Shown here piece after piece: positions 11,234 through 46,520 of a stretch of DNA of 64,000 nucleotides; the first letter of the stretch is position 1; each line of letters opens with the position of its first letter. Both the position numbers and the translations under genes were made by a program. The notes below the pieces were generated by a model. The model was not told the origin of the DNA, searched no databases, and was given only the letters and a program-made list of their open reading frames with translations. Origin of the DNA: an uncultured Clostridia bacterium (lineage in GTDB: Bacteria; Bacillota; Clostridia; Christensenellales; UBA1242); the NCBI GenBank assembly GCA_930971385.1, contig CAKNGB010000001.1, positions 67,670 through 131,669 of the forward strand. Reading direction: 5' to 3'.

Positions 11234-11297
11234 TTAGACAAATTTTTGCATAATTCGACAAATCTTCTCATAAGTAAAATTATGGGAGGATTTTTTT

Positions 11298-11789: not shown

Positions 11790-11819
11790 TTGACTTTTTC
11801 TTGTATGATAATTTATAAT
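11790..11819 (+). promoter_or_regulatory. candidate sigma-70-type promoter of the giant gene, TTGACT-18-TATAAT
   Basis: TTGACT 11790-11795, 18-nt spacer, TATAAT 11814-11819, within a ~13% GC region and ~70 nt upstream of RBS AGGAGG (11882-11887). Confidence 0.4.
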
Positions 11820-11890
11820 ATTTATATATATTAAATTGCCCACAACTGATTAATTATTTGCTATTTGCAAATATTAAATAAGGAGGCTTC

Positions 11891-11959
11891 ATGAAAAAGT
11901 TTGTCTATGGAATTTTGACCACTTTGATGCTCTTTGGAGGAGTGTTTCTTTCTGCCTGC
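11891..11959 (+). other. lipoprotein signal peptide (lipobox L-S-A-C, Cys23)
   Basis: MKKFVYGILTTLMLFGGVFLSAC; the Cys codon TGC is at 11957-11959. Confidence 0.8.
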
Positions 11960-14900
11960 GAACCTGCTCAAATTTCACTCTCTCTTTCCACAAACATTGT
12001 CAATCTTGTGACGAATGATGAAACGGGAGGAAGCCCAAGAGAAGAAACAATTTCTGTTTCACTTTCAAATTCTGATTTGGGTGTTGAAGCAGAAATTATT
12101 TCTGGTGAAGAACATATTTTGCTTTCCGACATTGTGCAAAACAGGCAAGGCAATTTCAACTTCACAATCTCAGCACAAAACAGCGGTGAAGCACTCATTA
12201 GAGTTTACTCTTTAGAAAACAATAATATTTTTGAATACATAAATGTCAGCGTTAAAACCAATCTTGAAAATTTGCAAATGAATGACATGGTGAATGCAAA
12301 TGGGCAAAGCGAGATGTGGATTGAAAGAGGAGGAAGTAAAGTTCTTTATCCTGAAACTTATTTCACTTTTGACCCTATTGATGCCGATGTGGACGACTTG
12401 GTTTGGACTTTTAACGACATTGAAAACGCCACCGACACAACAAATGCTAAAACTCAAATTGTGGAAGGCGACCAAGTTGTTGCAGAAATTATTGATAACA
12501 CACTTTATGTTTATGACAACTACACTTCGCCAATAATTAATGTTTATGCCTCTTGGCAAGTTGGCTCCACAATCATTAGTGCCGAGAATCCACTGACTTT
12601 TTCCATCGTCAATCCATCAAGCATTCAAAGTTTGGTTATAGGTGGCGAAACTATTGACTTAACAAACGCGCAAGGCGAAACCACAACAATAAAATTAGTT
12701 AAAAATAATTTTAATGCAGACGAACAAGGCTTTTTAAGCGAAGTTTCAGGCATAATGGTGGTGGAAAGTAGTTATGATATGGATTTAAGTTTGAAAGCGT
12801 ATCAAATTGTGAATGGCAAAAAAGTTTACATTGAAGATTATCAAAACTATTTTAAACTTGATGATATTGTTAAAGAAAAAGTCGACAATCAACTGACCTT
12901 TGAGTTTAAGATAGATGCACTTGACGACACAAATTCAAATTACTATGGAGATTTGTATGTCGAGTTTGTGCTGTCTTACACAGATTTTACTTATCAAATT
13001 GACACTTCAAACGCTTCGCGAGTTTTGATTTCCACATATTACGTGCCAGAAACTGTTGTGGTGAGAAACGAAACAGACAATATTGGCGGAGCAACAATCG
13101 ACTTATATTCTTCCTATTTTTCTTCGCGTGGTTATAGGCTGACTGTCAACCTTGAACCAAGTGATGTTGGGCTTAACGACAACACTTACCATATTGAAGT
13201 TGATATGGAAACATCAGGAAATCGCCCAGAAGAATATTTACAAGTTTACACTTCTTCAAGTCAAAATCCTCTTTCGTTCACAAAGATTGAAGGTTCAAGC
13301 ACCTATGAAACGGGAGCGATTGCAAGTGGCACAACCTTGTATCTTAGAAGTGGCACTCTTTCCACTTATAGCGATTTTGAAATAAGGTTTGTGGCAAATG
13401 GCAATCCTCGCTTTGCCAGTGAGTCTATCTATGCCAACGGTTATAGAATTGTGGATGATGTGACAATGAATGTTCAAAATAGCGATGGCACGAATTTTGA
13501 CTTCGATTCCACTTACTTTATTTCCTCTTCCTCAAGTTCAGAAAGAGAAATAACTTTTAATTTAAGAGTTTATGGTATGTCATCTTCCACTGGTCTTTCG
13601 CCATCCTACACTCAAAACCGCAACTTCAGCATAACCATGGTTGATGCTGGTAATTCTTATGAGGATGTGGTAAATCCAGAAAATTCCTATGTGGATGTTA
13701 ATGTGACAGTCAGCCTAAATGGTCGCAACATTCAAGATAGTTTTGAGTTCACTCTTCTTCACCAAACTGGCATGGAATCAGAGGTGTTTAAGATTGAGGC
13801 GTTTAATCCATTAACTTCTGCCACTGTTTCAAATGGAGATAGGGGGGCGGTGAATGTGTATTTCGAGGATGTGGAAAATCAAGACTATATCATCGACCAA
13901 GATGCAAACTCTTGGACTTCTTCAAATGGCGAATATGCAACATCTGACACTTTGTCAAGCGTTATGATTTCTGCTGGCTCTAACTTCCCATTAAGTTTCA
14001 ACTTCAATAGCGCAACACTAAGTGAGGATGCCGAACTTCTTGTGTTTGACTTTGAGGCATATAGAGAGCAAAATCCAAATGTTGATGAAGAAGTTTTATA
14101 TGAAGATTACTATGCTTCTTTAACAAGCGAGGACTTACTTGAATATTCTGCAAGCTTTGACGCAGATTATTCAGAATATTTCACTTACGCAAATGGGCAA
14201 ATTCGCACTCAAAACAGCGATTTCATTGTTTATGTTGCTGTGATTTTCCATGGATTTAACGAAAACCATGAAAATTTAAGTTTGGTTCGCTTGTTTAGAT
14301 TGGAAAGTTTTTATCCTGTCACGGCGCTTCGCAGTGATGTGACCGATGCTGAGTTATATGCAAGAGAAAGTTTAGGCGAAGAGGATGAAGATTTGTCTAA
14401 TATTGATGTGCAAATTTCCATGCGTCTGGACAGAGAAATACCAACCTACAGCGATATGGAGTATTTCTCAATTGCCTTTGCTTCCAACAGCACAACAGGA
14501 GCGCCAAATTACATATCCATTACTGATGAAAACAATGCTGTTAAGTCGATTATTCAAAATGAAAATGGCTCTTTAAGGCTAACTGCTTTTAACATCAACT
14601 CCAACAGGCTAACTTTCAACATTCAAGCAGAGTCCACCTTGTTTAGTTCGGAATTAAGCGAAACCATATATATAAGATATAGTTATAGACCTAACGAAAA
14701 CAGCCAAACAAGTTATGAAAGAACGGCAACCATCAATCTTAGAATTATTCAGGCAAATCGCGTGGAAAATGTTACATGGGTCAATGAAACCTATAACAGC
14801 GAAGTTTACTTAAACCTAATTTCCAACGATGTTGAAGATAAAACATTCACAATTTCCACCTCAGTTTCTCCAAACGAGGCAAATAACAGAAGTTTAACTT

Positions 14901-17900
14901 ATTACTATTATTCACTTGACGAAAGAGGCTCAAATCTTAGCATTGAAACCACAGCAATGAGCCAATCTTTCACCTTAACAATCGGCGACCAAAGCGAAGG
15001 TGGCTATGGCTATCTATACATTTTGCCAGAGGACATGGTTAAAAGACAGGGCGGTTCCAGGCAGATTGTTTACTATAACCTCAATGCAGACGGCACATTG
15101 TCGACCACAGCGGAATATTTGCCTTTGTCTGAGATTTACAGTTGGTATGACGATGTTGTGAATGCAACTGGTGAAACGGGCGAACTATATCGGGCTGACT
15201 ATTTCCTAAATAACGCTGGCGAAAGAGTGTTTTACCGCGACCTTATTTTAAGAATCCGCGTGACGATTGCCGACGGCAAGAGCGAAGAAACGGCAATTCG
15301 TGTTTACACAGAGGACGATTTAAAAAATTTGGATACCTCTTTATACTATCGTGTTATGAATGATATCACTTTGGATAACTGGACGCCTTATACAGAATTT
15401 TCTGGCATGATTTTCGGTGATAATGAAGATATCACTTTGAATTTCACGAACGGAAGCCAAACTTTTATCAGCACTTTAACTGGCGTTGTGAAAGATTTGA
15501 TTTTCACTGGTGAAGTGACAGGTGGCGGTTTTGTGGCAAACACCATTTCACAAACTGGCGCAATTGAATCTACTGGCGTTGTTTCAAATGTTAAAGTGGA
15601 TGTGAGGTATGTTGACGGAAGATACGCACCAAGTGTTGTTTATGACGGCGTGAATGTGGCTGGTTCTTACTATTTAGGCGCAATTGCTGGGCAAAATAAT
15701 GGTTTAATTGAAAATTCTTATGCCTTGGGCGTGGAACTTTCTGGAGATGTTAACAACACTTTTGTCGGCGGTATTGCTGGGCGTTTAACTGGTGAAATTA
15801 ACGGCTGTGGCGTGGAATTTTATAAGTTCGATGATGGGCAAGGCGGAGTTGTTAGCGACCAATTCTCAGGAACATATTTTGGTGGCATTGCGGGCGCTTC
15901 AACAACAGAAAATGGTAGCGTGCCAAGAATTGTCAATTCCTATGCCTATGCGTTTAGTTTGGAGGAGTATGATGAAAACATAACAATAACTAATGCTCAA
16001 AATGTGGATGCTTTCATTGGCTACACATATAATGACACAGAAATCGAAAACACCTTTGCATATCTCGGAGATATTGAAATAAGAAGCACAAGTAATTGGG
16101 TAATTAGAAACTCCTATAACACTTATATTTCCGATGTTGTGGAAGGCAATGCAACCTTAAGTTTCAGATATTTTGATTCGGATGGAGATAGTGAAGTTAT
16201 CACGCTTGACGAAATTTCAAGCGCAGACTTTTCGTCTTTGAATTCTCAAATTTGGGAATATGAAAACATTGACAGTTCAAGAAACTTTGGCTTCCCATAC
16301 CTTAAACACATCAGCCAAACACCACGCGTTTCGGTTGAACAGTCGATTTATGATGTGGATGGAAAGGTTTTGAGCGCAGAAAACGACAGAGCGGTGTTCT
16401 TCTTCTATGATGTCACAACCACACCTCAAAATGAGGGTGCAAGATATGAACTTGATATGTTTAACACCATTTCTATTATCGACCTATTTAATCTAGAGGA
16501 AGAATTTGCTGACAGCATGCTTGTTTCTGTGGACAGAGAACAATATCTTTCTTTCTCCACAACAAATCTGTTTGTTGAGCGAACAACCTTAGACTTATCC
16601 AGCAAAATTGTGACGCTGAATTTGTTTAGCAGAATGGACTTTTCTGTTTCCAAGCAATTTGAAATTATGATTGTTTATGCCGTGCCAGAAATGTCGCTGG
16701 CAACAGGCGGTTCAACGCTTAATGCTGGGCAAATTTTAAGCGTTCAAACAGGCAGAAACAACTCAAGAACAGTGGAAACAATTGTGGATAGCAACCTCTA
16801 TTTAAACGGCACGCGCTACACACTTTTGCAACACGATTATTACTACACAAACACATTAACAAACAACCAAACCGAAAGCGGAGAAAATTACTTCTCTTCA
16901 AATGTTGCAGGCAACACGGTTAACTACACAGCAAATTTGGCAACTGGTGGAAACTATGTTAATTCTTCAATTTCCATGGGCATAACCTCAATTGACACTC
17001 CAGAACTTGCCGACTTTAATAATGCTGTTGTGAATTATAACACCACATCCATTTTGCTTGGCTCGTATAACGGCGCAAATGCTTTGTTTATCGACGCCAT
17101 TTCCTCCGACATTTTACCTTCGGAATCCACCTCATTTAATGCGGTGCTTAACACAGATAACAGCGAGGATGACCTTGTTTTGACCTTTGTTTACAACGAT
17201 TTGGAATATGATGTTGTGATGGAAAGCGACGCGAAAGGCTATGTTCAAATTGGCGACAACTTAAAACTTGATGTTAACATTGCCAAAACTTCTGAAAGTG
17301 ACAACGAAATGAGATTTAATGTTATCATAAATGTCAACAAAGATTATAGATATAAGGTGGATGGCGACTATGCACTCACAGTTTTGGTTAATCCATTAAG
17401 TTCAAACAATTACACATGTTCATTTAATCTTACGGTGCATAAACAAGAAATTAACGCTGTGAATATGACAGCCTACACCATCTCCAGTCGTGTTATCTAT
17501 AATTCTGTTTGGTATTATTCTCCAAGCGACACACTTTCTTCCACCTTAGTTCCAGGCACAGACTCCATTTTAACCATGGAAGTTAGCCCAAGTTTCGCTC
17601 ACTATTCCTATTTCACCTTAAACTATGAAATCTCCACAAGTGGAAATGTGGGCACGGTTAGCCTTGCAAGGTTAAGTTATGTTCCTTCTTTTGGCTATCG
17701 AATTAACAACACAACCTCAGAAAGCATCGGTTCAGGGCTTAGGATAACGCCAAACGAAAGCGATTATTCTAATGGTATATATTATTTTAGAATTTACATA
17801 TCTTCTGGTTTTTCTGCCAACAGCACGCTAAGGCTTGTTGTGAATTTCTATGACGAAAATGGCGTGATTGGCACAAGTTATGTTTATAACTATATGATAG

Positions 17901-23900: not shown

Positions 23901-26900
23901 AAACACTTAAATTTGGTGGCTTGTTTGGGCAAATTGGTCGTGCACTCGAAACCACAACAGCAGAAACCACAATAGCAAATACCATAATAACAAATTCTGG
24001 CTATGGCGGAAAAGTTGAATTTATGGATGTTAAATCGCAAGGAACAGATGAAGAAGGAAATCCAATACCTTATGACTATGCCTATAACCTCACAACAGGC
24101 GGAATCATTGGCACGATTGAAGCAAGCGGAGTCACAGACTATTTTGAGATTTCAATTGAAGGCGCAAGAACCTATGGCGATGTGTATGTAAACTATTCAG
24201 ATGACGGCGCAAAACTCACCACTTTCTACTATGGCGGAATCATCGGCGAATATCAAGCGCCAGTTCAAGAGGTTGAGGATATTGACACTGTCAGCCTCAA
24301 CATGTGCTACACACTTATGACGCCATTCAATTTCAGATTAACCGAGAGTTATGAATTATCTCATTATCAAGTTAACGCACTTGTTGGATTTGGCAGTGAG
24401 TCAATTTCATCCTATACGAAAAATCTCTATTCTTCCAGCGTCAACTTCTCATATCAAGACATTAGCGAAGATATCGGCAGTGCAAATGTTGATGTTGGAT
24501 ATTATAATAAAAATGTTGGGAACGATGTAATAAAAAGCGATGCATATCGCGGTTATGGCGCAACAGCGTCAGATTCTTCCTATTCATATGAAAACATCGT
24601 GGGCGTTATGCACGACTTTGCAGGAGAATTTGAGCTTGAATTGACCAACGCAAAACTTAATCCTTTGCAAGTTGTGGCAATGAAGATAGACGGTGAGGAA
24701 GATAAGGAATATGAAGTTGAATTTAAAAGTATAACAGAAAAAACAAACGCTGTTTCGTGGTATTATCTTGCAGGCGATTTAGATTTGATGCCAGAAACTG
24801 AGACTGAAACTTCACCTTCAATATCCGAATTGAATAATATTGTTTTGGTTGGAAATGGAAATCGAATTCACACAAACACCGCACCAATCAACACAATGGC
24901 AACGAAGGGAAATTCCTTCACAGTTGTCACCAGCCTTATTGTTGACATGGATATGTCGAAAACCACCATTGCTGGCGAAACAATCGGCGGGCTTATCAAC
25001 ACGCTTGGCGATCCAAGTAAGACTGATAACACCGCAACCGCACTTCTATACGGCGTTGGTGTGGAAGGCGAGATGTATATTGGTGGCAATCGAAGCGAAG
25101 GTGTTATGGTTGGCGGAATTGTGGGAGATATGTCTATCGGCATAATGGAAAATGCCTACTTTGACGCCGACATCTTCTTTGGTTCATACGATACGACTAA
25201 TCTTGCCACAATCAGCGGAGTTGCCAACACAAACTCGGCAAATGTGCTGATAAGAAACACCTTCTCAGGCGGTTCAGTGCAAGCGTATGTTCCAGTGAAT
25301 ATCGCACTTTTCAACTATCACATAACACCACAAGGTGTTGAAGACACAGCAGAAATAAGAATATATGATTCCTATTCATATATGAACATACTTCGCTATG
25401 ATTATGGCCATGGTGTTGACGGCGAGGTTTCAGCATTTGCTGTGAATGAGAGCGAAAGAATTTATTATGACAACTCAGCGGATAATATGGCACTATATTA
25501 TTCAGGTGATTATTCGTCAGATATTTCAGGCGACGGAACCCATGCTGAAACAGGTGAATTGTCAGTTGGCTGGAATAAAAATGGCTCAATAAGTGACGTG
25601 AACAGCATTTTGGTAAACGGAAGTGACCAATCTCTTGCTAAGTGGAATCACTCACGCTATTTCAACAATGGCTATGCAACCACAAACTTTGGCTATTTAA
25701 GAAATGTTTCGGTTTATAGTTATAGCACAACCACTGCGGAATACACAAAACTATCGTTCGACCAAGCCTATAACCTTGACTATACAAGCAGTCACACACC
25801 TAATGAAGAAGGTGGCGAAACTGGTGGAGAAGATGACGAAACAGGCACAACGCTTCCAACCGATTACTACTTTGCTGTTCAAAGCCATGCAAAATTCGGG
25901 CAAGCAATGAAAGCGATTAATAACACAAAAGATGAAAACGGTGAGGATGCTATTTACTCAAATGACACACAATTCTTCTTGAAATACGATATTGATTTAA
26001 ATAAAATACCTATGGATTCTGGTTACTCTCGCGGACAAGACTTAGGCACAAAGGATAGACCAATAACCATCGACGGACAGGGCAATAACTTCACTTCAAC
26101 TGAAGGAGGCGATAAAGGCAACACAGCAATGTTTGATGAGATACACGGCACACTAAGAAACCTCAACATTGTTGTGAACGGAAAAATTAATGCAACAAGC
26201 GACTATAATAGAGGTGAGGATAATCCAGGCAAAGGCGAAGATGCAATTAAAGTTGACATTGAAGGCGAAACAACCGAGTCATCAAATGAATATTACACTA
26301 TCTATGGCGCACTTGCAAACCGCTTGTATGGCTCTTTAAACAATGTGACAGTTAAAGGCGATATTGCTGTTAAAGAACAATCTCAAATTGTTATTGGTGG
26401 TGTTGTTGGCTATGCCGAAAGTATGAAAAAAGAGGCGTCACCAGATAATCCAAGTGAAGGAACTGCCTTAAATTCAATAACGAATGTGACAAGTTTAGTG
26501 ACAATAAACACATCTGAAGGGACATCTGGTATTATTGGTGGAGTTGTTGGAATAGCCAAGGATATTAAAATAAGTAATTCCACATTTGCTGGAAATATCA
26601 TTTCAACAAGCGTCAATGAAGGACGGGTTTTAGGTGGTGATATTACTCTTCTAAATAATAATGGTGGCGATGAAATTGACAAAGCTATTACAAATGAGAA
26701 TATCGTGTTAAATAATGTTATTGGCGGAATTGTTGGTGATTTTGAAAGTAGCGATAACGAGGCTACAATTTCATACTGCTTTAACACAGGCTCAATCATC
26801 AATAACTATAAGTCAACAAACACTTCTCTTAATCTTTCCAGTGGGGGAATTGCTGGTTATTCAGAGGCTGAAATCTCAAGTTCGCTGAACACGGGATACG

Positions 26901-29900
26901 TGCAAGCGGGGAATTATGACAACACGGGCGTGGCACTGGCTGGCGGAATTGTTGGCTACACAACCGCAAGCATCACAAACTGCATCAACGACGCCCGCGT
27001 CCACGCAATCAGTGATCTTGAACCATCTTACTCTGTAGAAGAAGGTGCAACTATAGAACTTAATGTTCCAGGATTGGATAAAGATGGCAAGCCAGACAGA
27101 ACAGATTCTGCTGGAGATGCAACGGCAACAGTTTCATATAATATAACCTATAACTCTGAAAATCCAAACCGCCTTGTGTTTGCATATGCACTTGGATATG
27201 TTAATAATACTAATAATGCAAGAGCCACAGCGTCTGGTGTTAACATTCAAAATGGCACGGATGGCGGTGTTGATGTGTCAAATGATCTAGTTGAAAGCAC
27301 TGGTATTATTAACGACGGAAACATCGGACAAATAAGTGTTGATTATTATAAAGAATTTACACTTCCTCGCTATGCAAACGGATCAGATGATTTTTGGATA
27401 GGTGCTCAAGGATATCAAGAAAATATTGGCGATAGATATGGACTTTCTGATTCTTATAGTTTTAGTTCAACGCCAGATGTAAGTGCATACGATGCTTATG
27501 GTTTCCCAAGTAGGTTTAATTTGTCATATACTTACACATTTGATTTTGAAATCTTTGATTTATTTACATTGAACAATGTTTTTAAAGATGGAAATGATTT
27601 ATTAAATATCACTATAAAAGATGATTATACTACTGAAGGACAAACTATAGATTTAGCAGATTACTATGCTGATGTTGAAACATACAATGCTTTAGCTCCG
27701 GCTTATATAATGCTTCGTGATCTTGGAATAATAACAGACGAGCAGATGTATTACACTGGATTTTATTATGATGGAAAGAACTATCCTGGATTATATGAAC
27801 TGGTCCAAAATTGTTATGAAAAGATAAGTGCTCCTACTTATCCAGGTGGAGCAACTGAATATTATTTGTCATTGAATATGTATGATTATGGTTCTGACCG
27901 CTATGATGGCATATCATATGAAAACTATGTTATGCAACTTAATGACACCATGAATCTTTCAAATTATTCTAATGTCACTGAAATAACAGAAACTCCAAGC
28001 GGATTATATGACGATATCACAGATGTAGACACAGCAACAAAGGCTAATAAAACAATCAATATTGCTGGTGAGGATTACACAATAGCATATGATGACAATA
28101 ATTTAACAGAGAACTTAATTTTAAAAACCAATGTAAATTCATTAACAGATGGCACGGTTTATGGAAATGACCACACTCTTTCAAGATTTAGTGAAAAAAC
28201 CGATGGTTCGGATGCAACTATTTCAATTAGCAACTGGAAGAATGTTAACATAGTGACCTCTGCATCGTTAGAGAACATTGAAAGTAGTTTCAGTTTTGTT
28301 TCAAAATTTTCTAGCGACACTGCATTTATTACATTTTATGGTTCATTAAGAAATGTAAATCCAACAACTTCAAGTGATATTGCTATAACAAGTGTTAATT
28401 CTACTTATGGAGACCTTTCAGAAAGTGGCATGATGACTTTCTATATGTCATTAATTGGAAAAGATGCACCTCATAATTTAAGTACTTCTTCTTCTAGATA
28501 TGGTGAAAGTGTATCGGTTGAGTTGACTATGGCAGGCGAAAAAAACTATGGCGTTGTGGTTTCTGGAAATGGAGCAAATGGGTCTAATGGAGCTGATGGA
28601 GCAATCGTTCATAATAATACCTTTGGACGTGGTGGAAATGGCGGAACTGGTGGAACGATTGATATACCAACTTCTTCAAATATTACTTCTATTTATGGTT
28701 ATAATGGCGTTGGTGGAAATGGCGGAAATGGTAGCAACGGAATAAATGCAGAAGTGACTGAATATGGTAGTACTGGGGTCACTATACAGGGAAATAGAGG
28801 CGGCTACGCCGGTGGCGGCTACGGCACTGCAACGGCAAATGAAAACACCAAATCGAATTTAAGAGAAAGTAGAGCATTGGCTGGCTCTGGTGGAACTGGT
28901 GGGCTTGGTCTTGTTTATTATCATAAATATATTAATAATGAGATTGATGATTCTAATGTAGGAGGAAATGATTATTACCAAGTTGAAAATGCAATTAGGC
29001 AGTCTTTATCAAACATTGGCTTTGATGCTGGATATAGATATTACCAAGGTTTCGAAAATGGGTTAGATAATGTGATAGGTAATGGTAATGTAGGACTTGA
29101 AGATTATTATCAAAGGCATTTTTACATAACAGCGGCAGGTGGTGGTAGCGCAGGTGGTCTTAAAGCTAATGGAAATCAAGGCAGTAAAGGTGATACATTT
29201 AGAGGATATGACGCAATTTCACGTAATGATACGACTTATGGAACATATGGTTATCTATGGATTGATGATCACAATTCTGGCTTGTTTGATAATGACAATG
29301 AAGTGCTTTGGGGTGGTTTACAATTGATTCCTGCTTTTTCGCATAATAAAGTTAATACTGGTACTTATGGAGGACGAGGTGACTCTAACTATTTAAATAA
29401 TGCTACAGGATTAGCAACAGCAGTTGGAAATTATATAAGTGATTATAAATGGGGATTAATAGGTGACGGGTATATATATTCTTATGAAATAACCGCATCA
29501 GGGGGTCATACGACTACACTTACATGGAGAGTAAGTGAAGAGGTAAGTCCAAATATGTATAAGTTAGAATTAACTTCAGGTCAATCTGGATTTGAGATGT
29601 ATAATTATTATATGAAATATGAAAACTCGCAATATATTTTAACAGATAGACAGGGTAATTATGTTGATGTCACTGTAAAACCTACAGATGAGCCAACAAT
29701 AATAAATCGTGTCAGAGGCGGCGAAGATTATAATGTAGCACTTTATGAATATAAAGCTGATGGATCTATAGGTTATAAAGATGAAAAAAATCCATTCAAG
29801 AGATCAGAAAATAAAATTAATGAAGCGTATAAGAATATAAAAGCTTATAATGGCGGAACTATGTGGGATTATATCTTTGTTGGTGGCACTGGCGGATCGG

Positions 29901-30106
29901 CGATAGAAGGCGATGACACTGCAGGTGAAGCAGGAGGAACTCCATATTTGCAACAAATTTACGGAACGAATGATGCGTTTAATGATACTTATGAAAATTA
30001 TTGGTATACGCGAGATGACATGGTGACATCGGCTGGTAAATATGGTAATGCTAGTGAGCTTGGGACATATGCTGGCAGTGGTAGTTTTGAACAAAAATAT
30101 ATTTAA
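11891..30106 (+). CDS. giant surface lipoprotein (6,071 aa) with Ig-like repeats, multiple GLUG-type beta-solenoid modules and a Gly/Asn-rich C-terminal region
   Basis: Uninterrupted 18,216-nt ORF with a strong RBS and a lipobox (VFLSAC). Dozens of GG[IL][VAI]G repeats sit in the GLUG context (e.g. YLGAIAGQNNGLIENSYA, FVGGIAGRLTGEINGC, YVGGLVGYAGGGYISVAYN). Confidence 0.9.
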   Translation: MKKFVYGILTTLMLFGGVFLSACEPAQISLSLSTNIVNLVTNDETGGSPREETISVSLSNSDLGVEAEIISGEEHILLSDIVQNRQGNFNFTISAQNSGEALIRVYSLENNNIFEYINVSVKTNLENLQMNDMVNANGQSEMWIERGGSKVLYPETYFTFDPIDADVDDLVWTFNDIENATDTTNAKTQIVEGDQVVAEIIDNTLYVYDNYTSPIINVYASWQVGSTIISAENPLTFSIVNPSSIQSLVIGGETIDLTNAQGETTTIKLVKNNFNADEQGFLSEVSGIMVVESSYDMDLSLKAYQIVNGKKVYIEDYQNYFKLDDIVKEKVDNQLTFEFKIDALDDTNSNYYGDLYVEFVLSYTDFTYQIDTSNASRVLISTYYVPETVVVRNETDNIGGATIDLYSSYFSSRGYRLTVNLEPSDVGLNDNTYHIEVDMETSGNRPEEYLQVYTSSSQNPLSFTKIEGSSTYETGAIASGTTLYLRSGTLSTYSDFEIRFVANGNPRFASESIYANGYRIVDDVTMNVQNSDGTNFDFDSTYFISSSSSSEREITFNLRVYGMSSSTGLSPSYTQNRNFSITMVDAGNSYEDVVNPENSYVDVNVTVSLNGRNIQDSFEFTLLHQTGMESEVFKIEAFNPLTSATVSNGDRGAVNVYFEDVENQDYIIDQDANSWTSSNGEYATSDTLSSVMISAGSNFPLSFNFNSATLSEDAELLVFDFEAYREQNPNVDEEVLYEDYYASLTSEDLLEYSASFDADYSEYFTYANGQIRTQNSDFIVYVAVIFHGFNENHENLSLVRLFRLESFYPVTALRSDVTDAELYARESLGEEDEDLSNIDVQISMRLDREIPTYSDMEYFSIAFASNSTTGAPNYISITDENNAVKSIIQNENGSLRLTAFNINSNRLTFNIQAESTLFSSELSETIYIRYSYRPNENSQTSYERTATINLRIIQANRVENVTWVNETYNSEVYLNLISNDVEDKTFTISTSVSPNEANNRSLTYYYYSLDERGSNLSIETTAMSQSFTLTIGDQSEGGYGYLYILPEDMVKRQGGSRQIVYYNLNADGTLSTTAEYLPLSEIYSWYDDVVNATGETGELYRADYFLNNAGERVFYRDLILRIRVTIADGKSEETAIRVYTEDDLKNLDTSLYYRVMNDITLDNWTPYTEFSGMIFGDNEDITLNFTNGSQTFISTLTGVVKDLIFTGEVTGGGFVANTISQTGAIESTGVVSNVKVDVRYVDGRYAPSVVYDGVNVAGSYYLGAIAGQNNGLIENSYALGVELSGDVNNTFVGGIAGRLTGEINGCGVEFYKFDDGQGGVVSDQFSGTYFGGIAGASTTENGSVPRIVNSYAYAFSLEEYDENITITNAQNVDAFIGYTYNDTEIENTFAYLGDIEIRSTSNWVIRNSYNTYISDVVEGNATLSFRYFDSDGDSEVITLDEISSADFSSLNSQIWEYENIDSSRNFGFPYLKHISQTPRVSVEQSIYDVDGKVLSAENDRAVFFFYDVTTTPQNEGARYELDMFNTISIIDLFNLEEEFADSMLVSVDREQYLSFSTTNLFVERTTLDLSSKIVTLNLFSRMDFSVSKQFEIMIVYAVPEMSLATGGSTLNAGQILSVQTGRNNSRTVETIVDSNLYLNGTRYTLLQHDYYYTNTLTNNQTESGENYFSSNVAGNTVNYTANLATGGNYVNSSISMGITSIDTPELADFNNAVVNYNTTSILLGSYNGANALFIDAISSDILPSESTSFNAVLNTDNSEDDLVLTFVYNDLEYDVVMESDAKGYVQIGDNLKLDVNIAKTSESDNEMRFNVIINVNKDYRYKVDGDYALTVLVNPLSSNNYTCSFNLTVHKQEINAVNMTAYTISSRVIYNSVWYYSPSDTLSSTLVPGTDSILTMEVSPSFAHYSYFTLNYEISTSGNVGTVSLARLSYVPSFGYRINNTTSESIGSGLRITPNESDYSNGIYYFRIYISSGFSANSTLRLVVNFYDENGVIGTSYVYNYMIDYLNEANVLVDGATTVMLAKGDTAEISVTVDLDQTLTNLSLVGTGNDITRSDLVETVTETSRVYTATLRTSVLSTVSSGATGAFRVQATVQRTISGETEIKQSYATVYLVDFTINADETHIAGTSSTATYNGREYDVLHGYVNATNALDFNYSISPEEYSYDVNNIEEAEAVLELEEKRAEFNANDSYADTATGYYINYQQTANGYEEVALRERLYIVSSTGVATHIYNTERDRYVENTIVEFSGSGGNVSVRGLRTGQLLMRLETYIVVNNTSFTYTYDFLINIEVWTDEEVPLPIYTAEQFVDYLSGNENGTSTADDYILMNDIVLTDYTPLSTQYFDSFDGNGYTIFINSFHFDSASTTLNLALFSEVTANSTIKNVRVNLYNGGKITVNLNVYNEVNIAGFALVNNGIIYNSDVVAYYDSNLSSSQIVSSATGLVVDFVRGEGTDPINITSTNMSNDDVFISGFVGTNAGVITNSRVGGETYAVIIERNGSTFYNETTLPLFTLQGQGNVAGFVGENSGTISSSFAKNIEINNQMNSTSSETAGFVLSNSGEVHTSFIQGQNDPDSEDYYYDGSSIISTGRVGGFVYFNSGLVKNSYVNIAFEIDASRSYLSAGFVYENSSNGEITLCYSATKMSNSNINEMNFSGVNERGEDLNQNPTGITYSYYYVPENVGSTTQDSYTTGATSITDVDVEDAFYRFSFASEEGALDGIWTMTEDGITLTSANHIAFSNRYLVQSETSEEYSLFYSTLTDYSTRRLVDLSYGSLKNPIIIRDASDFALATGKAQEKEISSYKQYYTDTEVFGHYRIVSDIDFDDIDQNLEGAEELRLTTTTKTFSGILDGNAFTISNINLGSSSYVENYGLFARLNDASIMNLGLEVASVHNVNANIVGTLAGTMIDSRLSGIELSPIPTTSEEEEVVSVSIAGNNIVGGVVGIVLGNSKLSDIQVTDIDVVSAYYDGSKEVGYNDRFTGTNIRQITTIGGSLMNAVDELSYAGAVSGYVDMFMSVNEESVAYSTTVVIPDFQVATIRVLSSVDIYGEVAGGIFGYLGSSTQAFDMGLELDANMNLTNPSYITSKNLYAGGLVGESYGGLYAVYTEHIRTMQDTIEESMYSYYNGSQDVERGQMSIFSYTQNDTLHYNTRYNNPYYVGGLVGYAGGGYISVAYNRLNVVSNTTTREESYFGGIIGYLNASTTYNTNSITDNSEVTYYLHEVYFSGVLNSNTSALVGGIVGQISSSSVLAMEFVNSIPYYEQNSNRDNIFALVAGFEHDDLGMEVLPSHLYLLDNYSGYYDVITKVRVAGRDAAVTTVSAVVEYLYEDDTLTDEQSRMNYINGFRDNLIVYNGTGVDSVDSSDVDFSYEYAQIIQSPSHLSTMAMAYTRMSNFFIRAGWNDSVWTHELETMFPRIEFVPELTVIYLDYDIDSVREVLEAIHFNSSLTVVVRGRIDRDDPDAGHADVDLRRFDGPDEYENVVGKILTPTLINNFSGRIISYRAFINEGTGDATEGIVNRNINGDIGGEQGADVGIIIDSALFENAISGFEITDLNIYYHESESDTTTSHSILIENTANGAILNNLNIYVRSDLSIEADSYGRAGILVPYAISSDFTGVHFTLNEGVSINFASFDTSDGSTPQTNQYFGVLAGVIRQESPYRAMAVGNIRFDRVEGAEDSPIAINFENKTSDDYSYNIYFGLLTGQWEIDSYAADATFRINNLTNTTLNITLGYTPDGIASVDANINDIYFGGYIGRADITSIETEANKDPNEKILSNTINVTQNFSVANNEYFGLVVGELEGNGGVRFTSSSIPGTDNTLEINGSLNLGDSAIGNDAYIGGFIGHAEFNTVITCQLSVNFSVNEDDITTLNGAFEEPTKEPETPLLVTNNAYIGSFIGYLSGGSLRLGGFDVRGNINVKIKESTGGDLNQLIRYGIVGEVFNANLTIDPGSSGHSISRVNVVANSNIENNSRDEQLYVGGLAGIVSGTSEIDVNRFLYTGTTVAFSETLKFGGLFGQIGRALETTTAETTIANTIITNSGYGGKVEFMDVKSQGTDEEGNPIPYDYAYNLTTGGIIGTIEASGVTDYFEISIEGARTYGDVYVNYSDDGAKLTTFYYGGIIGEYQAPVQEVEDIDTVSLNMCYTLMTPFNFRLTESYELSHYQVNALVGFGSESISSYTKNLYSSSVNFSYQDISEDIGSANVDVGYYNKNVGNDVIKSDAYRGYGATASDSSYSYENIVGVMHDFAGEFELELTNAKLNPLQVVAMKIDGEEDKEYEVEFKSITEKTNAVSWYYLAGDLDLMPETETETSPSISELNNIVLVGNGNRIHTNTAPINTMATKGNSFTVVTSLIVDMDMSKTTIAGETIGGLINTLGDPSKTDNTATALLYGVGVEGEMYIGGNRSEGVMVGGIVGDMSIGIMENAYFDADIFFGSYDTTNLATISGVANTNSANVLIRNTFSGGSVQAYVPVNIALFNYHITPQGVEDTAEIRIYDSYSYMNILRYDYGHGVDGEVSAFAVNESERIYYDNSADNMALYYSGDYSSDISGDGTHAETGELSVGWNKNGSISDVNSILVNGSDQSLAKWNHSRYFNNGYATTNFGYLRNVSVYSYSTTTAEYTKLSFDQAYNLDYTSSHTPNEEGGETGGEDDETGTTLPTDYYFAVQSHAKFGQAMKAINNTKDENGEDAIYSNDTQFFLKYDIDLNKIPMDSGYSRGQDLGTKDRPITIDGQGNNFTSTEGGDKGNTAMFDEIHGTLRNLNIVVNGKINATSDYNRGEDNPGKGEDAIKVDIEGETTESSNEYYTIYGALANRLYGSLNNVTVKGDIAVKEQSQIVIGGVVGYAESMKKEASPDNPSEGTALNSITNVTSLVTINTSEGTSGIIGGVVGIAKDIKISNSTFAGNIISTSVNEGRVLGGDITLLNNNGGDEIDKAITNENIVLNNVIGGIVGDFESSDNEATISYCFNTGSIINNYKSTNTSLNLSSGGIAGYSEAEISSSLNTGYVQAGNYDNTGVALAGGIVGYTTASITNCINDARVHAISDLEPSYSVEEGATIELNVPGLDKDGKPDRTDSAGDATATVSYNITYNSENPNRLVFAYALGYVNNTNNARATASGVNIQNGTDGGVDVSNDLVESTGIINDGNIGQISVDYYKEFTLPRYANGSDDFWIGAQGYQENIGDRYGLSDSYSFSSTPDVSAYDAYGFPSRFNLSYTYTFDFEIFDLFTLNNVFKDGNDLLNITIKDDYTTEGQTIDLADYYADVETYNALAPAYIMLRDLGIITDEQMYYTGFYYDGKNYPGLYELVQNCYEKISAPTYPGGATEYYLSLNMYDYGSDRYDGISYENYVMQLNDTMNLSNYSNVTEITETPSGLYDDITDVDTATKANKTINIAGEDYTIAYDDNNLTENLILKTNVNSLTDGTVYGNDHTLSRFSEKTDGSDATISISNWKNVNIVTSASLENIESSFSFVSKFSSDTAFITFYGSLRNVNPTTSSDIAITSVNSTYGDLSESGMMTFYMSLIGKDAPHNLSTSSSRYGESVSVELTMAGEKNYGVVVSGNGANGSNGADGAIVHNNTFGRGGNGGTGGTIDIPTSSNITSIYGYNGVGGNGGNGSNGINAEVTEYGSTGVTIQGNRGGYAGGGYGTATANENTKSNLRESRALAGSGGTGGLGLVYYHKYINNEIDDSNVGGNDYYQVENAIRQSLSNIGFDAGYRYYQGFENGLDNVIGNGNVGLEDYYQRHFYITAAGGGSAGGLKANGNQGSKGDTFRGYDAISRNDTTYGTYGYLWIDDHNSGLFDNDNEVLWGGLQLIPAFSHNKVNTGTYGGRGDSNYLNNATGLATAVGNYISDYKWGLIGDGYIYSYEITASGGHTTTLTWRVSEEVSPNMYKLELTSGQSGFEMYNYYMKYENSQYILTDRQGNYVDVTVKPTDEPTIINRVRGGEDYNVALYEYKADGSIGYKDEKNPFKRSENKINEAYKNIKAYNGGTMWDYIFVGGTGGSAIEGDDTAGEAGGTPYLQQIYGTNDAFNDTYENYWYTRDDMVTSAGKYGNASELGTYAGSGSFEQKYI
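28551..28925 (+). repeat. Gly/Asn-rich low-complexity block (GNG/GGxGG repeats) within the giant protein
   Basis: VVSGNGANGSNGADG...GRGGNGGTGGTI...GYNGVGGNGGNGSNG...GNRGGYAGGGYG...LAGSGGTGGLG. Shorter echoes occur at ~29125-29200 (AAGGGSAGGLKANGNQGSKGD) and ~29875-29950 (VGGTGGSAIEGDDTAGEAGG). Confidence 0.8.
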
Positions 30107-30264: not shown

Positions 30265-30993
30265 ATGGATAACAGTGATGTTTCTCATGCTGGGCACAGA
30301 GAACGCCTTGTTGACCTTGCCATTAATGCAGGGCTTGAGAGCATGAATCAATATCAAGTTTGTGAACTCCTTTTAACTTACATATTTCCTCGCGGGGATG
30401 TTAATCCACTTGCACACAGGCTTATCGACACCTATGGAACGCTGACCAACATCATTGACGCATCGGTTGAAGACCTTTCCAATGTTAAAGGCTTGAACAC
30501 AAGAAGTGCTAAGAAACTCTCTTTATTTGGCGAACTGTTTTTCGCATATGTGACTGCAAGAATGACAAGAAAAACGCAAATTGAAAATGAGCATGATGTT
30601 GTGGATATGGTGGAAGATTTACTTAGATTTAGAACTTCTGAAAACATCATTATGCTGGGTTTCAGCGTGGCAAACCTTTTGTGCGGAAGAAAGAGAATTG
30701 TTGCTTCTGAATCTGATGAAGTGAACATTCCAATCATGGACTTGACCGCATTCCTATCTTCAGTTAAACCACATTCTTTTGTTATGGCGCATTGTCATCC
30801 TTATGGCACTGCAAATCCGTCGGAGGCAGACCTCAAAGCCTTTGACATGGTGCAGAAAATTTGCTTCGACTGTGGAGTGAATTTTGCAGGGTGCTACATC
30901 GTTGGAGAGGACGGCGTTTATGCTATTCATAAAAATAAATTTGCACGAACCTACTGCGATGTTGACAGCCTTAAAAAAGCATTTAAAGTTTAA
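30265..30993 (+). CDS. RadC-like JAB/JAMM domain protein (copy 1)
   Basis: RBS AAGGAGG. N-terminal GHRERL, HhH-like segment DLSNVKGLNTRSAKKL, JAMM motif HCHPYGTANPSEAD. Confidence 0.8.
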   Translation: MDNSDVSHAGHRERLVDLAINAGLESMNQYQVCELLLTYIFPRGDVNPLAHRLIDTYGTLTNIIDASVEDLSNVKGLNTRSAKKLSLFGELFFAYVTARMTRKTQIENEHDVVDMVEDLLRFRTSENIIMLGFSVANLLCGRKRIVASESDEVNIPIMDLTAFLSSVKPHSFVMAHCHPYGTANPSEADLKAFDMVQKICFDCGVNFAGCYIVGEDGVYAIHKNKFARTYCDVDSLKKAFKV

Positions 30994-46436: not shown

Positions 46437-46520
46437 ATGGCAAAAACTTTTAAAAGAATTTTTGTTGGCGTCTTTTCTGCAATCGCTTTTATGGTTGCAG
46501 GACTCTTTTTTGCTGGGTGT
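46437..46520 (+). other. lipoprotein signal peptide (lipobox F-A-G-C, Cys28)
   Basis: MAKTFKRIFVGVFSAIAFMVAGLFFAGC. Confidence 0.75.

Follow-up and report, generated by a model that had tools for sequence, protein, structure and literature searches.

A conserved gene for a giant predicted lipoprotein with six predicted beta-helix modules in uncultured gut Clostridia

The giant gene and its start signals

The window, that is, the whole stretch of 64,000 nucleotides analysed here, carries on its forward strand an open reading frame (ORF) of 18.2 kb that begins with ATG and, according to both the ORF listing and the translation, has zero internal stops between 11891 and 30106. The uninterrupted 6,071-aa ORF and the AGGAGG ribosome-binding site reported in the first-pass annotation are thereby confirmed, as is its estimate that this gene and a second giant ORF jointly occupy about 46% of the window (46.3%). 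The features discussed below are the following.

11790..11819, + strand: promoter-like site of the housekeeping-sigma type, TTGACT-N18-TATAAT, matching 11/12 consensus positions (consensus scan)
11881..11886, + strand: ribosome-binding site AGGAGG, 4 nt 5' of the ATG (direct reading)
11891..30106, + strand: giant lipoprotein ORF, 6,071 aa, predicted 665 kDa, pI 4.15
11891..11959, + strand: predicted lipoprotein signal peptide (aa 1-22) and lipobox Cys23, LSAC (sequence pattern)
11960..15280, + strand: N-terminal membrane-proximal region, aa 24-1130, non-repetitive, no Pfam family above threshold
15281..16390, + strand: module M1, aa ~1131-1500, hhalign probability 95.8% to M2 and 96.3% to M6, GLUG 13.6 bits (sub-threshold)
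16391..18760, + strand: intermediate region, aa 1501-2290, non-repetitive, 23-43% identity between species
18761..22150, + strand: conserved core, tandem modules M2 (aa ~2291-2750) and M3 (aa ~2770-3420) (AlphaFold2, Foldseek, profile)
22211..24760, + strand: module M4, aa ~3441-4290, hhalign M3-M4 95.7%, M3-M4b 93.4%, M4b-M6 96.3%, GLUG sub-threshold
24761..25960, + strand: module M5, aa ~4291-4690, weak hhalign kinship with the other modules (51-58%)
25961..27640, + strand: module M6, aa ~4691-5250, passes the Pfam GLUG threshold, holds the strain-hypervariable segment
~25990-26890, + strand: strain-hypervariable segment, aa ~4700-5000, inside M6
28073..30103, + strand: C-terminal distal glycine-rich module, aa ~5395-6071, with motifs that recur in orthologues
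46437..57875, + strand: partial paralog, a 3,812-aa predicted lipoprotein (lipobox FFAGC) with beta-helix modules

The start signals are shared with related species. A TTGACT-N17/18-TATAAT sequence matching at least 10 of the 12 consensus positions precedes the start codon by 78-116 nt in 16/17 orthologous loci of other species, and the near-consensus site at 11790..11819 is accordingly regarded as a putative promoter. Likewise, GGAGG is found at equal spacing in 16 of these 17 loci, the remaining one (L035) having GAGGGG. Together with the purifying selection described below, these conserved signals are indirect evidence of expression. Further upstream, a terminator-like hairpin (11260-11293, with a T-run to 11303) falls inside the SpoIIID coding region or shortly after it.

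The N-terminus, MKKFVYGILTTLMLFGGVFLSAC, has the features of a lipoprotein signal: its n-region is basic, its h-region is hydrophobic, and the lipobox L-S-A-C ends in Cys23. The lipobox given at first pass as VFLSAC thus stands as LSAC, and it is conserved: the 19 orthologues with a start codon on the contig all have a lipobox Cys (LLSAC, LFTGC, LLSSC, ILGGC) behind a K/R-rich start, and LLSAC is also visible in another orthologue (L029), which is truncated within its first residues. On this pattern, Cys23 is probably lipidated; neither lgt nor lspA is present within the window.

As the first-pass annotation had stated, motif and hydrophobicity scans revealed no LPXTG, no HExxH and no C-terminal transmembrane helix. 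In the whole giant protein, neither LPXTG nor a variant of it was found, nor a C-terminal hydrophobic window, which sets it apart from sortase-anchored proteins; HExxH occurs nowhere and Peptidase_M26 has no Pfam match, which sets it apart from the IgA1 protease/M26 family; and no GGxGxD is present, which sets it apart from RTX/type I secreted adhesins. Besides the signal peptide, the only hydrophobic segment is one marginal window at aa 2926, within a beta-helix. Moreover, the protein lacks self-similarity by BLASTP even at E=1, and no DNA repeats were found inside the ORF.

Architecture of the protein

The first ~1,130 residues had been described as Ig-like repeats, the first of them resembling a Big_2 domain, and neither part of this description held. 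No Big family, including Big_2 (PF02368), matches aa 1-1100 at E<=10, and none matches at E<=0.1 in about 15 N-termini (that of the window and those of 14 orthologues). The block-versus-block profile comparison by hhalign detected no internal repeats in aa 24-1130, the best probability being 29%. The closest Pfam family is Ig_NUP210, which is sub-threshold at aa 80-121 (18 bits versus a cutoff of 27; 18-19 bits when the orthologous N-termini are counted), and a profile of the region finds a titin Ig domain as a weak match among PDB sequences (E 0.07). Individual domains of this region may have an Ig-like fold, as opposed to a tandem array or a Big_2 domain. Between species, aa 24-1130 are 22-40% identical. 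The intermediate region (aa 1501-2290) shows no Pfam match, no PDB profile match and no repeats. These two regions and aa 5251-6071, about 45% of the protein, lie outside the fold assignment.

The remainder is built of six mutually related segments, M1-M6, read as beta-helix modules, with hhalign probabilities of 80-97%, M5 being weaker. A whole-protein Pfam scan at E<=0.01 gave no match; when the protein was scanned in tiles, GLUG (PF07581) reached 26.3 bits in aa 4701-5300 (cutoff 20.5, E 8.5e-6, three stretches), which assigns the M6 tile to this family by sequence, while three further GLUG tiles fall below the Pfam threshold (13.6, 14.9 and 7.7 bits). Over the M2-M3 region, a Pfam GLUG match is seen in just 2/20 family members. 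Sequence landmarks of M1 are YYRVMNDITL at 1152, IFGDNEDITLNF at 1174 and a closing W at 1455, and the stretch aa 1101-1200 is 53% identical between species; M5 starts with WYYLAGDLDL at 4290, followed by LVGNGNRIHT at 4319.

For the tandem M2-M3, the AlphaFold2 model of aa 2290-3440 (pLDDT 76.6, pTM 0.82) consists of two right-handed parallel beta-helices, and the GLUG motif would be placed on the turns of such a helix in this model. Foldseek retrieved only right-handed beta-helix proteins with it, the IgA1 protease of S. pneumoniae (6xja) with probability 1.00, at low TM-scores of 0.1-0.4. In addition, the family profile matches in the PDB 3n6z, a 'putative immunoglobulin A1 protease', with E 2.2e-7. 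The GLUG-type beta-solenoids proposed at first pass are thus supported by three lines of evidence (Pfam in M6, the 3n6z profile match, and AlphaFold2 with Foldseek); their number is to be revised from four to six related segments.

The C-terminal module had been singled out earlier as compositionally distinct, and it is: Gly makes up 20% of aa 5501-5750 compared with 5-12% elsewhere in the giant protein. Its motifs (YGxLRN, GNGANGSNGADG, GVGGNGGNG, GSGGTGGLG, GGTPY, RDDMVTSAGxYG) are found again in the orthologues as well as in six incomplete proteins from databases; they are common to 13/14 aligned orthologues, L035 being without them, and the L028 orthologue has an additional C-terminal extension of ~300 aa. 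An exhaustive phmmer search of 1.84 billion representatives with the C-terminal domain returned nine matches, all of them relatives of the giant-lipoprotein family, and word-indexed searches returned six partial relatives in all (four with the single sequence, five with the profile). Neither profile nor single sequence matched Pfam or the PDB. A similarity to BurrH repeats was rejected as a chance match. By these sequence searches, the glycine-rich domain is restricted to the clade that carries the giant gene. Its AlphaFold2 model, built from a 7-sequence alignment, has a pLDDT of 32. Polyglycine-II (PGII) sandwich domains, such as those of phage S16/T2 gp38 and the ALK glycine-rich domain, combine packed PGII helices with variable loops; in the tip described here, glycine-rich motifs alternate with variable stretches, and the Gxx runs are at most four triplets long.

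The 3,812-aa ORF had been called a paralog, and this holds for part of its length. Giant aa 2283-3270 and paralog aa 2495-3389 are 27% identical (E 3e-43); this is the sole region of homology, so that M2-M3 is the only part common to both proteins. The paralog also has a coiled-coil-like, charged stretch at aa ~3370-3580, and at least 10 contigs, drawn from different assemblies, encode the identical protein. Its gene adjoins rpoB, away from the giant gene. A functional coupling of the paralog to a VirB4-like ATPase was considered and rejected: the two genes are adjacent in close relatives only (ATPase at least 79% identical), not at 60-64%, and the coupling was therefore kept out of the main explanation.

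Conservation and variation among relatives

UBA1242 and other uncultured, genome-reduced Christensenellales occur widely in the guts of animals and humans. The carriers of the giant gene are uncultured gut Clostridia, one of them named Ca. Caccovivens (family UBA1242, Christensenellales), and the named Ca. Caccovivens metagenome-assembled genome bears an orthologue of 44% identity, on which the placement of the present organism in UBA1242 is based. UBA1242 genomes range from about 0.7 to 1.6 Mb. They are without most biosynthesis and the standard transporters, with sugar transporters among those reported missing, and retain sporulation genes; dependence on a partner cell has been proposed (PMC12306168), which fits a contact-fibre reading ecologically. 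The genome of Ca. Caccovivens faecavium is 1.1 Mb (PMC8035907). If the genome is taken as ~1 Mb, the giant gene costs ~2% of it, or ~3% with the paralog. The window also encodes a protein of the F_bP_aldolase family, whereas fructose-bisphosphate aldolase is reported absent from UBA1242 (PMC12306168), which speaks against the placement in this family.

Full-length alleles of 6,071, 6,033, 6,041, 6,035, 6,038, 6,033 and 6,089 aa were recovered from seven independent metagenome assemblies, which represent the same strain or close relatives. Beyond these, comparison of genomes for presence and length variation identified orthologues in 20 species-level genomes: in 13 the gene is one complete ORF (5,406-6,741 aa), and in seven it is cut by contig ends, with a longest open stretch of 6,951 codons. 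Misassembly or a frameshift, against which the first-pass annotation had cautioned, is rejected by the seven full-length alleles and the 13 complete orthologues. Wherever the flanks lie on the contig, the gene order is SpoIIT-like / M23 (SpoIIQ-like) peptidase / ACP / SpoIIID / giant gene / RadC. The upstream neighbours are present in 17/20 loci and RadC in 15, namely all those that reach the downstream gene; SpoIIT and SpoIIID were not detected in the L035 locus.

Along the chain, conservation peaks centrally and the outer half is variable. M2-M3 is the best-conserved part, with 42-59% identity between species over aa 2301-3200 and 96-100% between strains from aa 2806; such a central, as opposed to distal, maximum would equally suit an enzymatic or structural core. 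The dN/dS ratio is 0.0-0.25 in aa 24-1130, 0.05-0.25 in the N-terminal half and at most 0.16 in the core, and between strains it climbs to 0.5-1.0 in M4. The identity between strains is 96-100% at aa 2806-3505, 74-95% at aa 3850-4700 and 36-54% at aa 4756-4955. The DNA flanking the hypervariable segment is 97-98.6% identical, and at the edges of the segment protein identity is 68-70%. Within the segment dS is 1.14, compared with 0.03-0.12 in the flanking genes, and since dS is raised as much as dN, imported alleles are the likely source of the variation. A diversity-generating retroelement and repeat-mediated variation were both rejected here, as no template-like or tandem repeat is present and dS is as high as dN.

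The C-terminal ~400 aa have less than 10% identity between species, with many gaps. Within the strain cluster, the L019 strain carries a C-terminal allele of just 38-44% identity, and the DNA downstream of it has 98.5% identity; the last ~400 codons in this strain also contain a frameshift, located at a contig end with 5.7x coverage.

Functional interpretation and known systems

The best explanation as a whole, held with somewhat more confidence than doubt, is that this ORF is a true gene, passed on vertically, and that its product is a giant lipoprotein of the cell surface. A real gene conserved at the same chromosomal spot in ~20 species probably encodes a cell-surface fibre; in particular, anchored rod modules, a conserved core and a diversifying outer half lead to the reading of a long surface fibre or adhesin. 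On balance, therefore, we favour a membrane-anchored fibre or adhesin that contacts variable outside surfaces, be they those of partner microbes, of the host (mucus or cells) or of particles. We infer export, extended shape and adhesion from the predicted architecture and the evolutionary pattern. Besides the IgA1 protease, the beta-helix proteins retrieved by Foldseek include adhesins and passengers (SRRP 5nxk, Ag43, Hbp).

According to this model, the gene would be transcribed from the strong housekeeping-type promoter and the product exported by Sec via the signal peptide. Cys23 would then be lipidated and the signal peptide cleaved, giving a mature, highly acidic chain of ~6,050 residues with an N-terminal tether on the outer face of the cytoplasmic membrane. 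From the membrane outward, ~1,100 non-repetitive residues, presumably crossing the wall, would be followed by six rigid right-handed GLUG-type beta-helix modules with one unassigned region between them, and by the clade-specific glycine-rich domain at the distal tip. The central helix pair M2-M3 would form the family core, while the outer half (M4-M6 and the tip) would diversify via mutation and intragenic recombination.

A more far-reaching version of the fibre model goes beyond this, and in its entirety we think it unlikely to be right. In this version the carriers, gut Clostridia that form spores and have reduced genomes, would be obligately partner-dependent (epibiotic or parasitic), and the giant lipoprotein would be their main organelle of attachment, a fibre made of stacked beta-helices and anchored by its lipid, with a novel glycine-rich receptor-binding tip, possibly of polyglycine-II type, whose allelic turnover tracks the surface of the partner or host; the paralog and the adjacent chromosomal VirB4 ATPase of mycoplasma-ICE type would take part in contact-dependent cell-to-cell transfer.

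Among the alternatives is a protective or decoy surface layer, which is not very likely. The protein would form an abundant acidic coat against phages, host IgA and enzymes, and its variable outer half would serve immune or phage escape. The strong conserved housekeeping-type promoter with its ribosome-binding site, the very acidic charge (pI 4.15) and the hypervariable, recombining outer segments are all in keeping with such a coat; against it, the giant protein shows no S-layer features (SLH, CWB2 or another Pfam family), and a 665-kDa monomer with rod modules would be an unusual lattice subunit. Coat and adhesin overlap, and sequence alone does not separate them. Of the adhesin, fibre or S-layer-like coat suggested at first pass, adhesin or fibre is retained as the best reading, while the S-layer-like coat finds no specific backing, SLH and CWB2 being without a match.

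It also seems unlikely that the protein is a surface-tethered, multi-module glycan-degrading enzyme, whose beta-helices would be lyases or hydrolases harvesting mucin, plant or microbial polysaccharides for a transporter-poor cell. The lowest Foldseek E-values do belong to enzymes (the GH55 Lam55A 3eqn at 7.8e-4, PL6 alginate lyases, a fucoidan lyase and pectate lyases), and the strongest conservation, in the central M2-M3, is what would be expected of an active site. However, it is the IgA1 protease, with its non-catalytic GLUG helix, that receives the top Foldseek probabilities, and the low TM-scores indicate a match to the generic beta-helix fold. Moreover, no catalytic beta-helix family of Pfam (pectate lyase, GH28, Beta_helix, NosD and the like) was found at E<=10 in 600-aa tiles, GLUG being the sole family, and the reported lack of sugar transporters in UBA1242 (PMC12306168) speaks against harvesting. 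The likeness to the pectate-lyase superfamily is therefore one of fold only.

A role at the cell or spore surface during sporulation, whether in the spore coat, in the exosporium or as a tether between mother cell and forespore, is improbable. The idea is suggested by the constant spoIIQ-like, spoIIT-like and spoIIID neighbours in about 19 species, by the retention of sporulation genes in UBA1242 (PMC12306168) and by glycine-rich triplet runs that recall collagen-like proteins of the exosporium. These runs are just four triplets long, however, and the conserved promoter fits the housekeeping TTGACA/TATAAT pattern, not the motifs of sigma-E, -K, -F or -G; furthermore, the terminator-like hairpin stands inside spoIIID or shortly after it, and the paralog is located elsewhere, beside rpoB.

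A contact-dependent polymorphic toxin, or a fibre for effector delivery, with a variable C-terminal domain as toxic or exchanged cargo is very improbable. The poor alignment of the C-terminal ~400 aa between species and the divergent L019 allele would suit it, but nearly all orthologues have the same glycine-rich C-terminal motifs (the exceptions being L035 and the extended L028), which makes the C-terminal domains diverged homologues, not swapped cassettes. No toxin family was matched in Pfam, and radC always follows immediately 3', unchanged even beside the divergent allele, which argues against a cognate immunity gene. A polymorphic toxin of the CDI/Rhs/LXG-like kind was thus rejected on the motifs shared by 13/14 orthologues and on radC in 15/15 loci. 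Finally, an assembly artefact or a decaying pseudogene open by chance, as the short-read metagenome source and the frameshift at the L019 contig end might suggest, has a negligible probability in view of the seven full-length alleles, the 13 other species with complete ORFs, the purifying selection, the lack of internal DNA repeats and the conserved start signals.

The favoured surface fibre or adhesin would matter for the biology of the carriers. Every related species retrieved keeps the gene intact, in synteny and behind a strong conserved promoter, and, being also costly in a small genome, it is an obvious candidate for a cell-contact structure. The published accounts of genome-reduced Christensenellales such as UBA1242 that were considered here treat metabolism and point out no such structure. 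The giant lipoprotein could be targeted concretely with antibodies, by fluorescent labelling and cryo-tomography, and in strategies of enrichment or cultivation. An earlier survey, as quoted in PMC11573180, found giant bacterial genes to be strain-specific and compositionally atypical, and a conserved syntenic giant gene contradicts this generalisation in the form quoted there.

Among known systems, the closest are the GLUG beta-helices of the S. pneumoniae IgA1 protease ZmpA (6xja/6xjb) and 3n6z. They share with the giant lipoprotein the right-handed parallel beta-helix, the turn motif G-[FL]-[VA]-G-x-N-x-G-x-I-x-N-[SC]-Y and a module grammar made of an N-P-x-x-I cap, Y-x-[IL]-x-x-D-I-x-[LF], G-N-G-x-x-I and a closing W. 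Unlike ZmpA, the giant lipoprotein has no M26 metalloprotease domain, HExxH, G5 domains or LPXTG, and it combines six helices per chain, mostly sub-threshold for GLUG, with an N-terminal lipid anchor. Right-handed beta-helix rods as adhesive modules are also common to the L. reuteri SRRP (5nxk), Ag43 and Hbp, to which the Foldseek matches are weak (E 0.1-0.3); SRRP depends on sortase/LPXTG and aSec, and the autotransporters on a type V barrel, whereas the giant lipoprotein has none of these.

Ebh, SiiE and the LapA/RTX adhesins consist of tens of near-identical Ig-like repeats. They are of a similar size class and presumed, like the giant lipoprotein, to be extended surface fibres, but the latter shows no BLASTP self-similarity (E=1), no DNA repeats and no GGxGxD. 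The SPEARE proteins of Nanohaloarchaeota are huge surface proteins of host-dependent, ultra-small prokaryotes, with a proposed role in cell contact. The giants of Omnitrophota (30,000-85,000 aa) have many transmembrane regions, SecA-like domains and beta-helix filaments, and resemble the present case in devoting a large share of a reduced genome to huge surface proteins with a proposed role in cell contact (bioRxiv 10.1101/2023.11.21.568195); the giant lipoprotein differs in its single lipid anchor, its lack of transmembrane or SecA-like domains and its unrelated sequence.

Giant1-5 of Apilactobacillus kunkeei are extracellular proteins of 3,000-8,000 aa from a Bacillota genome of 1.5 Mb (PMC12863079). 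A sequence relationship between them and the giant lipoprotein was not found. In both cases a small genome of the Bacillota encodes very large surface proteins with beta-solenoids from more than one giant gene, and these diversify by short intragenic recombination (PMC12863079). The elongated chain of Giant1-4 carries its beta-solenoid N-terminally (PMC12863079), whereas the giant lipoprotein has six spread along a non-repetitive chain; it differs further in its lipoprotein anchor and its novel glycine-rich tip, and its gene is a positional orthologue that occurs in single copy throughout a clade of family rank. What the giant lipoprotein adds to the catalogue of giant surface proteins is, therefore, a non-repetitive multi-beta-helix architecture together with a clade-restricted glycine-rich domain.

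The giant gene and its genuineness

The gene and the protein elements first needed here are:

11881-11886, + strand: AGGAGG, 4 nt 5' of the giant-gene ATG
11891-30106, + strand: giant ORF, 6,071 aa, ATG start (ORF listing)
aa ~5395-6071 of the product: C-terminal module, opening with a degenerate module-start motif

The sole stop in the translation of the giant ORF is the terminal one. The N-terminus, MKKFVYGILTTLMLFGGVFLSAC, carries the lipobox L-S-A-C with Cys23 and reads as a textbook lipoprotein signal peptide, which also accounts for the only clearly hydrophobic 19-residue window; neither an LPXTG-type motif nor HExxH was found in the whole protein. The directly readable statements of the first-pass annotation (ORF, RBS, lipobox, no LPXTG or HExxH) were all correct on re-reading. 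The product has a predicted mass of 665 kDa and is very acidic (pI 4.15; D+E 806 vs K+R 312). Glycine is abundant in its final ~570 residues (20% at aa 5501-5750), in agreement with the compositionally distinct C-terminus noticed earlier. The GC content of the gene is unremarkable relative to its neighbours, and the two giant ORFs together occupy 46.3% of the window, previously estimated at about 46%.

The window sequence is identical to scaffold_38 (320 kb) of ENA assembly ERZ1478590. Independent assemblies from other samples, retrieved via the exact protein sequences of small flanking genes, encode giant proteins of 6,033, 6,041, 6,035, 6,038, 6,033 and 6,089 aa, with one further copy interrupted by a contig end only; the length of the gene is therefore polymorphic and its frame always open. 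No DNA repeats or tandem repeats able to cause collapse or chimeras were found within the gene, and BLASTP of the protein against itself gave no match even at E=1. This absence of self-similarity is unusual at such a size. The misassembly or frameshift that had been proposed for checking is not borne out by these open full-length alleles; the giant ORF is no artefact, and the probability of the contrary is practically nil.

Beta-helix modules, flanking regions and the paralog

Pfam and NCBIfam scans of the protein halves gave no match at E<=0.01, nor did a PDB sequence search with the raw protein. Among 600-aa tiles, GLUG (PF07581) was over threshold in one only (aa 4701-5300, 26.3 bits vs 20.5) and sub-threshold in three others. 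In a collection of 5.8 billion proteins, the homologues of aa 2280-3480 are without exception unnamed and partial, and come from Clostridia/Christensenellales MAGs. The alignment of the core (modules M2-M3, aa ~2291-3420) contains an N-P-x-I-I cap, Y-x-[IL]-x-x-D-I, D-G-N-G-x-x-I, repeated G-F-V-x-x-N-x-G-x-I-x-[NSD]-[SC]-Y turns and a closing D-G-[IV]-W, the classical grammar of GLUG modules. This alignment gave a confident AlphaFold2 model for aa 2290-3440 (pLDDT 76.6, pTM 0.82), made up of two parallel beta-helices, and Foldseek matched it in the PDB to right-handed beta-helix proteins only: by E-value the best are glycan enzymes (Lam55A, PL6 lyases), by probability S. pneumoniae IgA1 protease (6xja, 1.00), and further matches are SRRP, Ag43, Hbp and phage tailspikes. 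A BFVD search agreed with this, a phage 'putative IgA1 protease' being among its matches, and the family profile matched PDB chain 3n6z ('putative immunoglobulin A1 protease', E 2.2e-7).

By profile-profile comparison of segments from a 16-species alignment, six segments are interrelated at 80-97% probability (aa 1131-1500, 2291-2750, 2770-3420, 3441-3900, 3901-4290 and 4691-5250), and aa 4291-4690 is weakly related to the other modules (51-58%). The modules are of the GLUG beta-helix type. Four GLUG-type beta-solenoid modules had been proposed: the type stands on the Pfam match at aa 4701-5300, 3n6z and the AlphaFold2 model, and the count gives way to six related segments.

Neither the N-terminal 1,100 aa nor aa 1501-2290 shows internal repeats, and both regions gave no matches to Pfam in 15 species or in a PDB profile search. 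The N-terminal run of about 1,130 aa of Ig-like repeats described by the first-pass annotation was thus not recovered, and neither was the resemblance of its first repeat to Big_2, which was not seen in the Pfam tiles; the first domain gave a sub-threshold match to Ig_NUP210 only.

In the C-terminal module, variable stretches separate conserved glycine-rich motifs (GNGANGSNGADG, GVGGNGGNG, GSGGTGGLG, AAGGGSAG, GGTPY and RDDMVTSAGxYG). An exhaustive phmmer search against 1.84 billion representative proteins returned only nine matches, every one from the family; the top match is an orthologue of 5,946 aa (60% identity). No Pfam or PDB relatives were found and the structure model reached a pLDDT of 32; the domain is therefore clade-restricted, without a recognisable fold.

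The second giant ORF and other genes of the window are:

43750-46419, + strand: 889-aa ATPase, ending 18 nt 5' of the paralog
46437-57875, + strand: 3,812-aa lipoprotein (lipobox FFAGC), the paralog
5303-7129, + strand: acidic/exported-type 608-aa ORF (pI 4.25) between mfd and an mprF-like gene, no Pfam or NCBIfam match
40527-41219, + strand: 230-aa predicted lipoprotein (…FGVAGC), without family assignment

The paralogy suggested earlier holds over the M2-M3 core (27% identity, E 3e-43) and not elsewhere. The paralog lacks the glycine-rich C-terminal domain, has a ~200-aa charged, heptad-like stretch with a weak SMC match (aa ~3370-3580), and occurs as an identical protein on at least 10 contigs of different assemblies. 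The ATPase matches end to end NCBIfam NF045975, 'Mbov_0397 family ICE element conjugal transfer ATPase (VirB4_plasma)' (587 bits, cutoff 590; E 4.5e-176). The window has no further recognisable genes of conjugation or of an ICE. Relatives at 60-64% identity are sited among housekeeping genes, so the ATPase seems to be a VirB4 that stands alone on the chromosome; a giant lipoprotein follows it in close relatives only (ATPase at least 79% identical). In a more distant relative (L003:1-15322, ERZ28615137 scaffold_742), four large consecutive genes without Pfam matches, adjoining the sporulation genes ypeB, sleB-like, spoIIR and sipL, encode at least 4,118, then 1,056, 1,501 and 1,773 aa, the 1,773-aa product being homologous to the M2-M3 core, which suggests that the family has been split or expanded in other Clostridia.

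Distribution, expression signals and variation

With aa 2280-3480 as query, 20 loci were found among GTDB species represented by one genome each, all in MAGs of uncultured gut Clostridia (from human, rabbit, water deer and other hosts). One bears the name Candidatus Caccovivens sp.; several others are labelled, evidently loosely, as Lachnospiraceae, Catabacter or Christensenella. The match lies inside a single open frame in all 20. The ORF is complete in 13 (5,406-6,741 aa; 6,090 codons in locus L020); the other 7 end at contig ends (longest remaining stretch 6,951 codons). A K/R-rich signal peptide with LLSAC, LFTGC, LLSSC or ILGGC is present in 19/19 orthologues with the start codon on the contig, and LLSAC is still visible in the twentieth (L029), cut at its first residues.

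Where flanks are on the contig, the gene order is constant: SpoIIT-like, M23 peptidase (best NCBIfam match SpoIIQ), acyl carrier protein (ACP), SpoIIID, giant gene, RadC. Of the 20 loci, 17 have detectable upstream neighbours and 15 have RadC; at locus L035 the upstream genes detected are the M23 peptidase and ACP only. Between species, neighbour proteins are about 30-70% identical and the giant protein about 35% overall. A near-consensus TTGACT-N17/18-TATAAT lies 78-116 nt 5' of the start codon in 16/17 loci examined, and GGAGG 3-5 nt 5' of it in 16/17 (GAGGGG in L035). Kept at this evolutionary distance, these elements argue for strong transcription, probably by the housekeeping sigma factor. 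In the window, the flanks are:

9708-11400, + strand: compact sporulation set directly 5' of the giant gene (SpoIIT-like (DUF1779), M23/SpoIIQ, ACP, SpoIIID), order kept across about 19 species
30265-30993, + strand: RadC-like JAB-domain gene directly 3' of the giant gene, kept in 15/15 related loci reaching past the gene end
38717-39463, - strand: another RadC-like JAB-domain gene, within 9 kb of the former

Between-species identity peaks at aa 1101-1200 (53%) and 2301-3200 (42-59%), is 22-36% at aa 101-1100 and 16-33% at 3300-5600, and falls below 10% in gap-rich alignment after aa 5700. Strains with flanking DNA 97-98.6% identical were also compared.

Identity of the giant protein between strains
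aa 2806-3505: 96-100%
aa 3850-4700: 74-95%
aa 4756-4955: 36-54%
after aa 5450: 96-100%

The dN/dS ratio ranges from 0.05 to 0.25 in the N-terminal half, does not exceed 0.16 in the core and reaches 0.5-1.0 at aa 3500-4500. Within the hypervariable segment (aa ~4700-5000, inside module M6) dS is 1.14, vs 0.03-0.12 in radC, uvrB and uvrA, which marks the segment as an old allele imported by recombination rather than a mutational hotspot. The 100-fold variation of dS along the N-terminal half is a further indication of a recombination mosaic. In a further contig (L019:1-1255, ERZ1643254 NODE_450), a C-terminal allele 38-44% identical precedes downstream DNA and genes 98.5% identical to the window and carries a frameshift near nt 282-288, at a contig end with 5.7x coverage; either the allele was replaced and the frameshift is a sequencing error, or the tip has been pseudogenised (strain-specific lesion).

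Host lineage and probable function

Ca. Caccovivens corresponds to GTDB genus UBA11517, family UBA1242, order Christensenellales (1.1 Mb, 34% GC; PMC8035907). Genomes of UBA1242 measure 0.7-1.6 Mb, are without most biosynthetic pathways and standard transporters, unexpectedly retain sporulation genes, and have been proposed to belong to obligate symbionts or parasites (PMC12306168); giant proteins are mentioned neither there nor in PMC13155120. The sporulation genes present in the window are consistent with this retention. The window also encodes a class II fructose-bisphosphate aldolase family protein (F_bP_aldolase, PF01116; 39530-40480, - strand), an enzyme reported absent from UBA1242 (PMC12306168), so that placement in or near this family is something we infer: either the organism lies outside UBA1242 or the gene encodes a paralog, of the tagatose type or another.

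The structural statements on the giant protein are well supported. Its N-terminal lipid anchor would fix the topology, with the N-terminus at the membrane and the C-terminus distal, so that, from the membrane outward, the chain may be read as a proximal region that spans the wall, a conserved helix pair, increasingly variable helices and, as its fourth part, a lineage-specific tip. Given such a layout, a promoter that is both strong and conserved, and the proposed lifestyle of these bacteria, the best explanation is an adhesin or long fibre at the cell surface, held with a little more confidence than doubt; the ligand and adhesion itself are what we infer. A surface coat or decoy is unlikely, and a glycan enzyme tethered by the anchor rather improbable, as is, more markedly, a surface protein linked to sporulation. 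IgA1 proteases, sortase-anchored adhesins, RTX adhesins and polymorphic toxins were each tested for a defining feature; since this is lacking in every case, the giant protein is none of them, a polymorphic toxin retaining a very slight probability.

In function, the putative fibre is closest to Giant1-5 of Apilactobacillus kunkeei (PMC12863079) and to giant proteins of ultra-small prokaryotes that depend on a host. What is new is a non-repetitive chain in which six beta-helices are joined to a lipid anchor, a glycine-rich tip restricted to the clade, and an unremarkable GC content relative to the neighbours. Also new is that the gene belongs to the syntenic core of a family-level clade, which contrasts with the 'strain-specific, compositionally atypical' giant genes of the picture quoted in PMC11573180.
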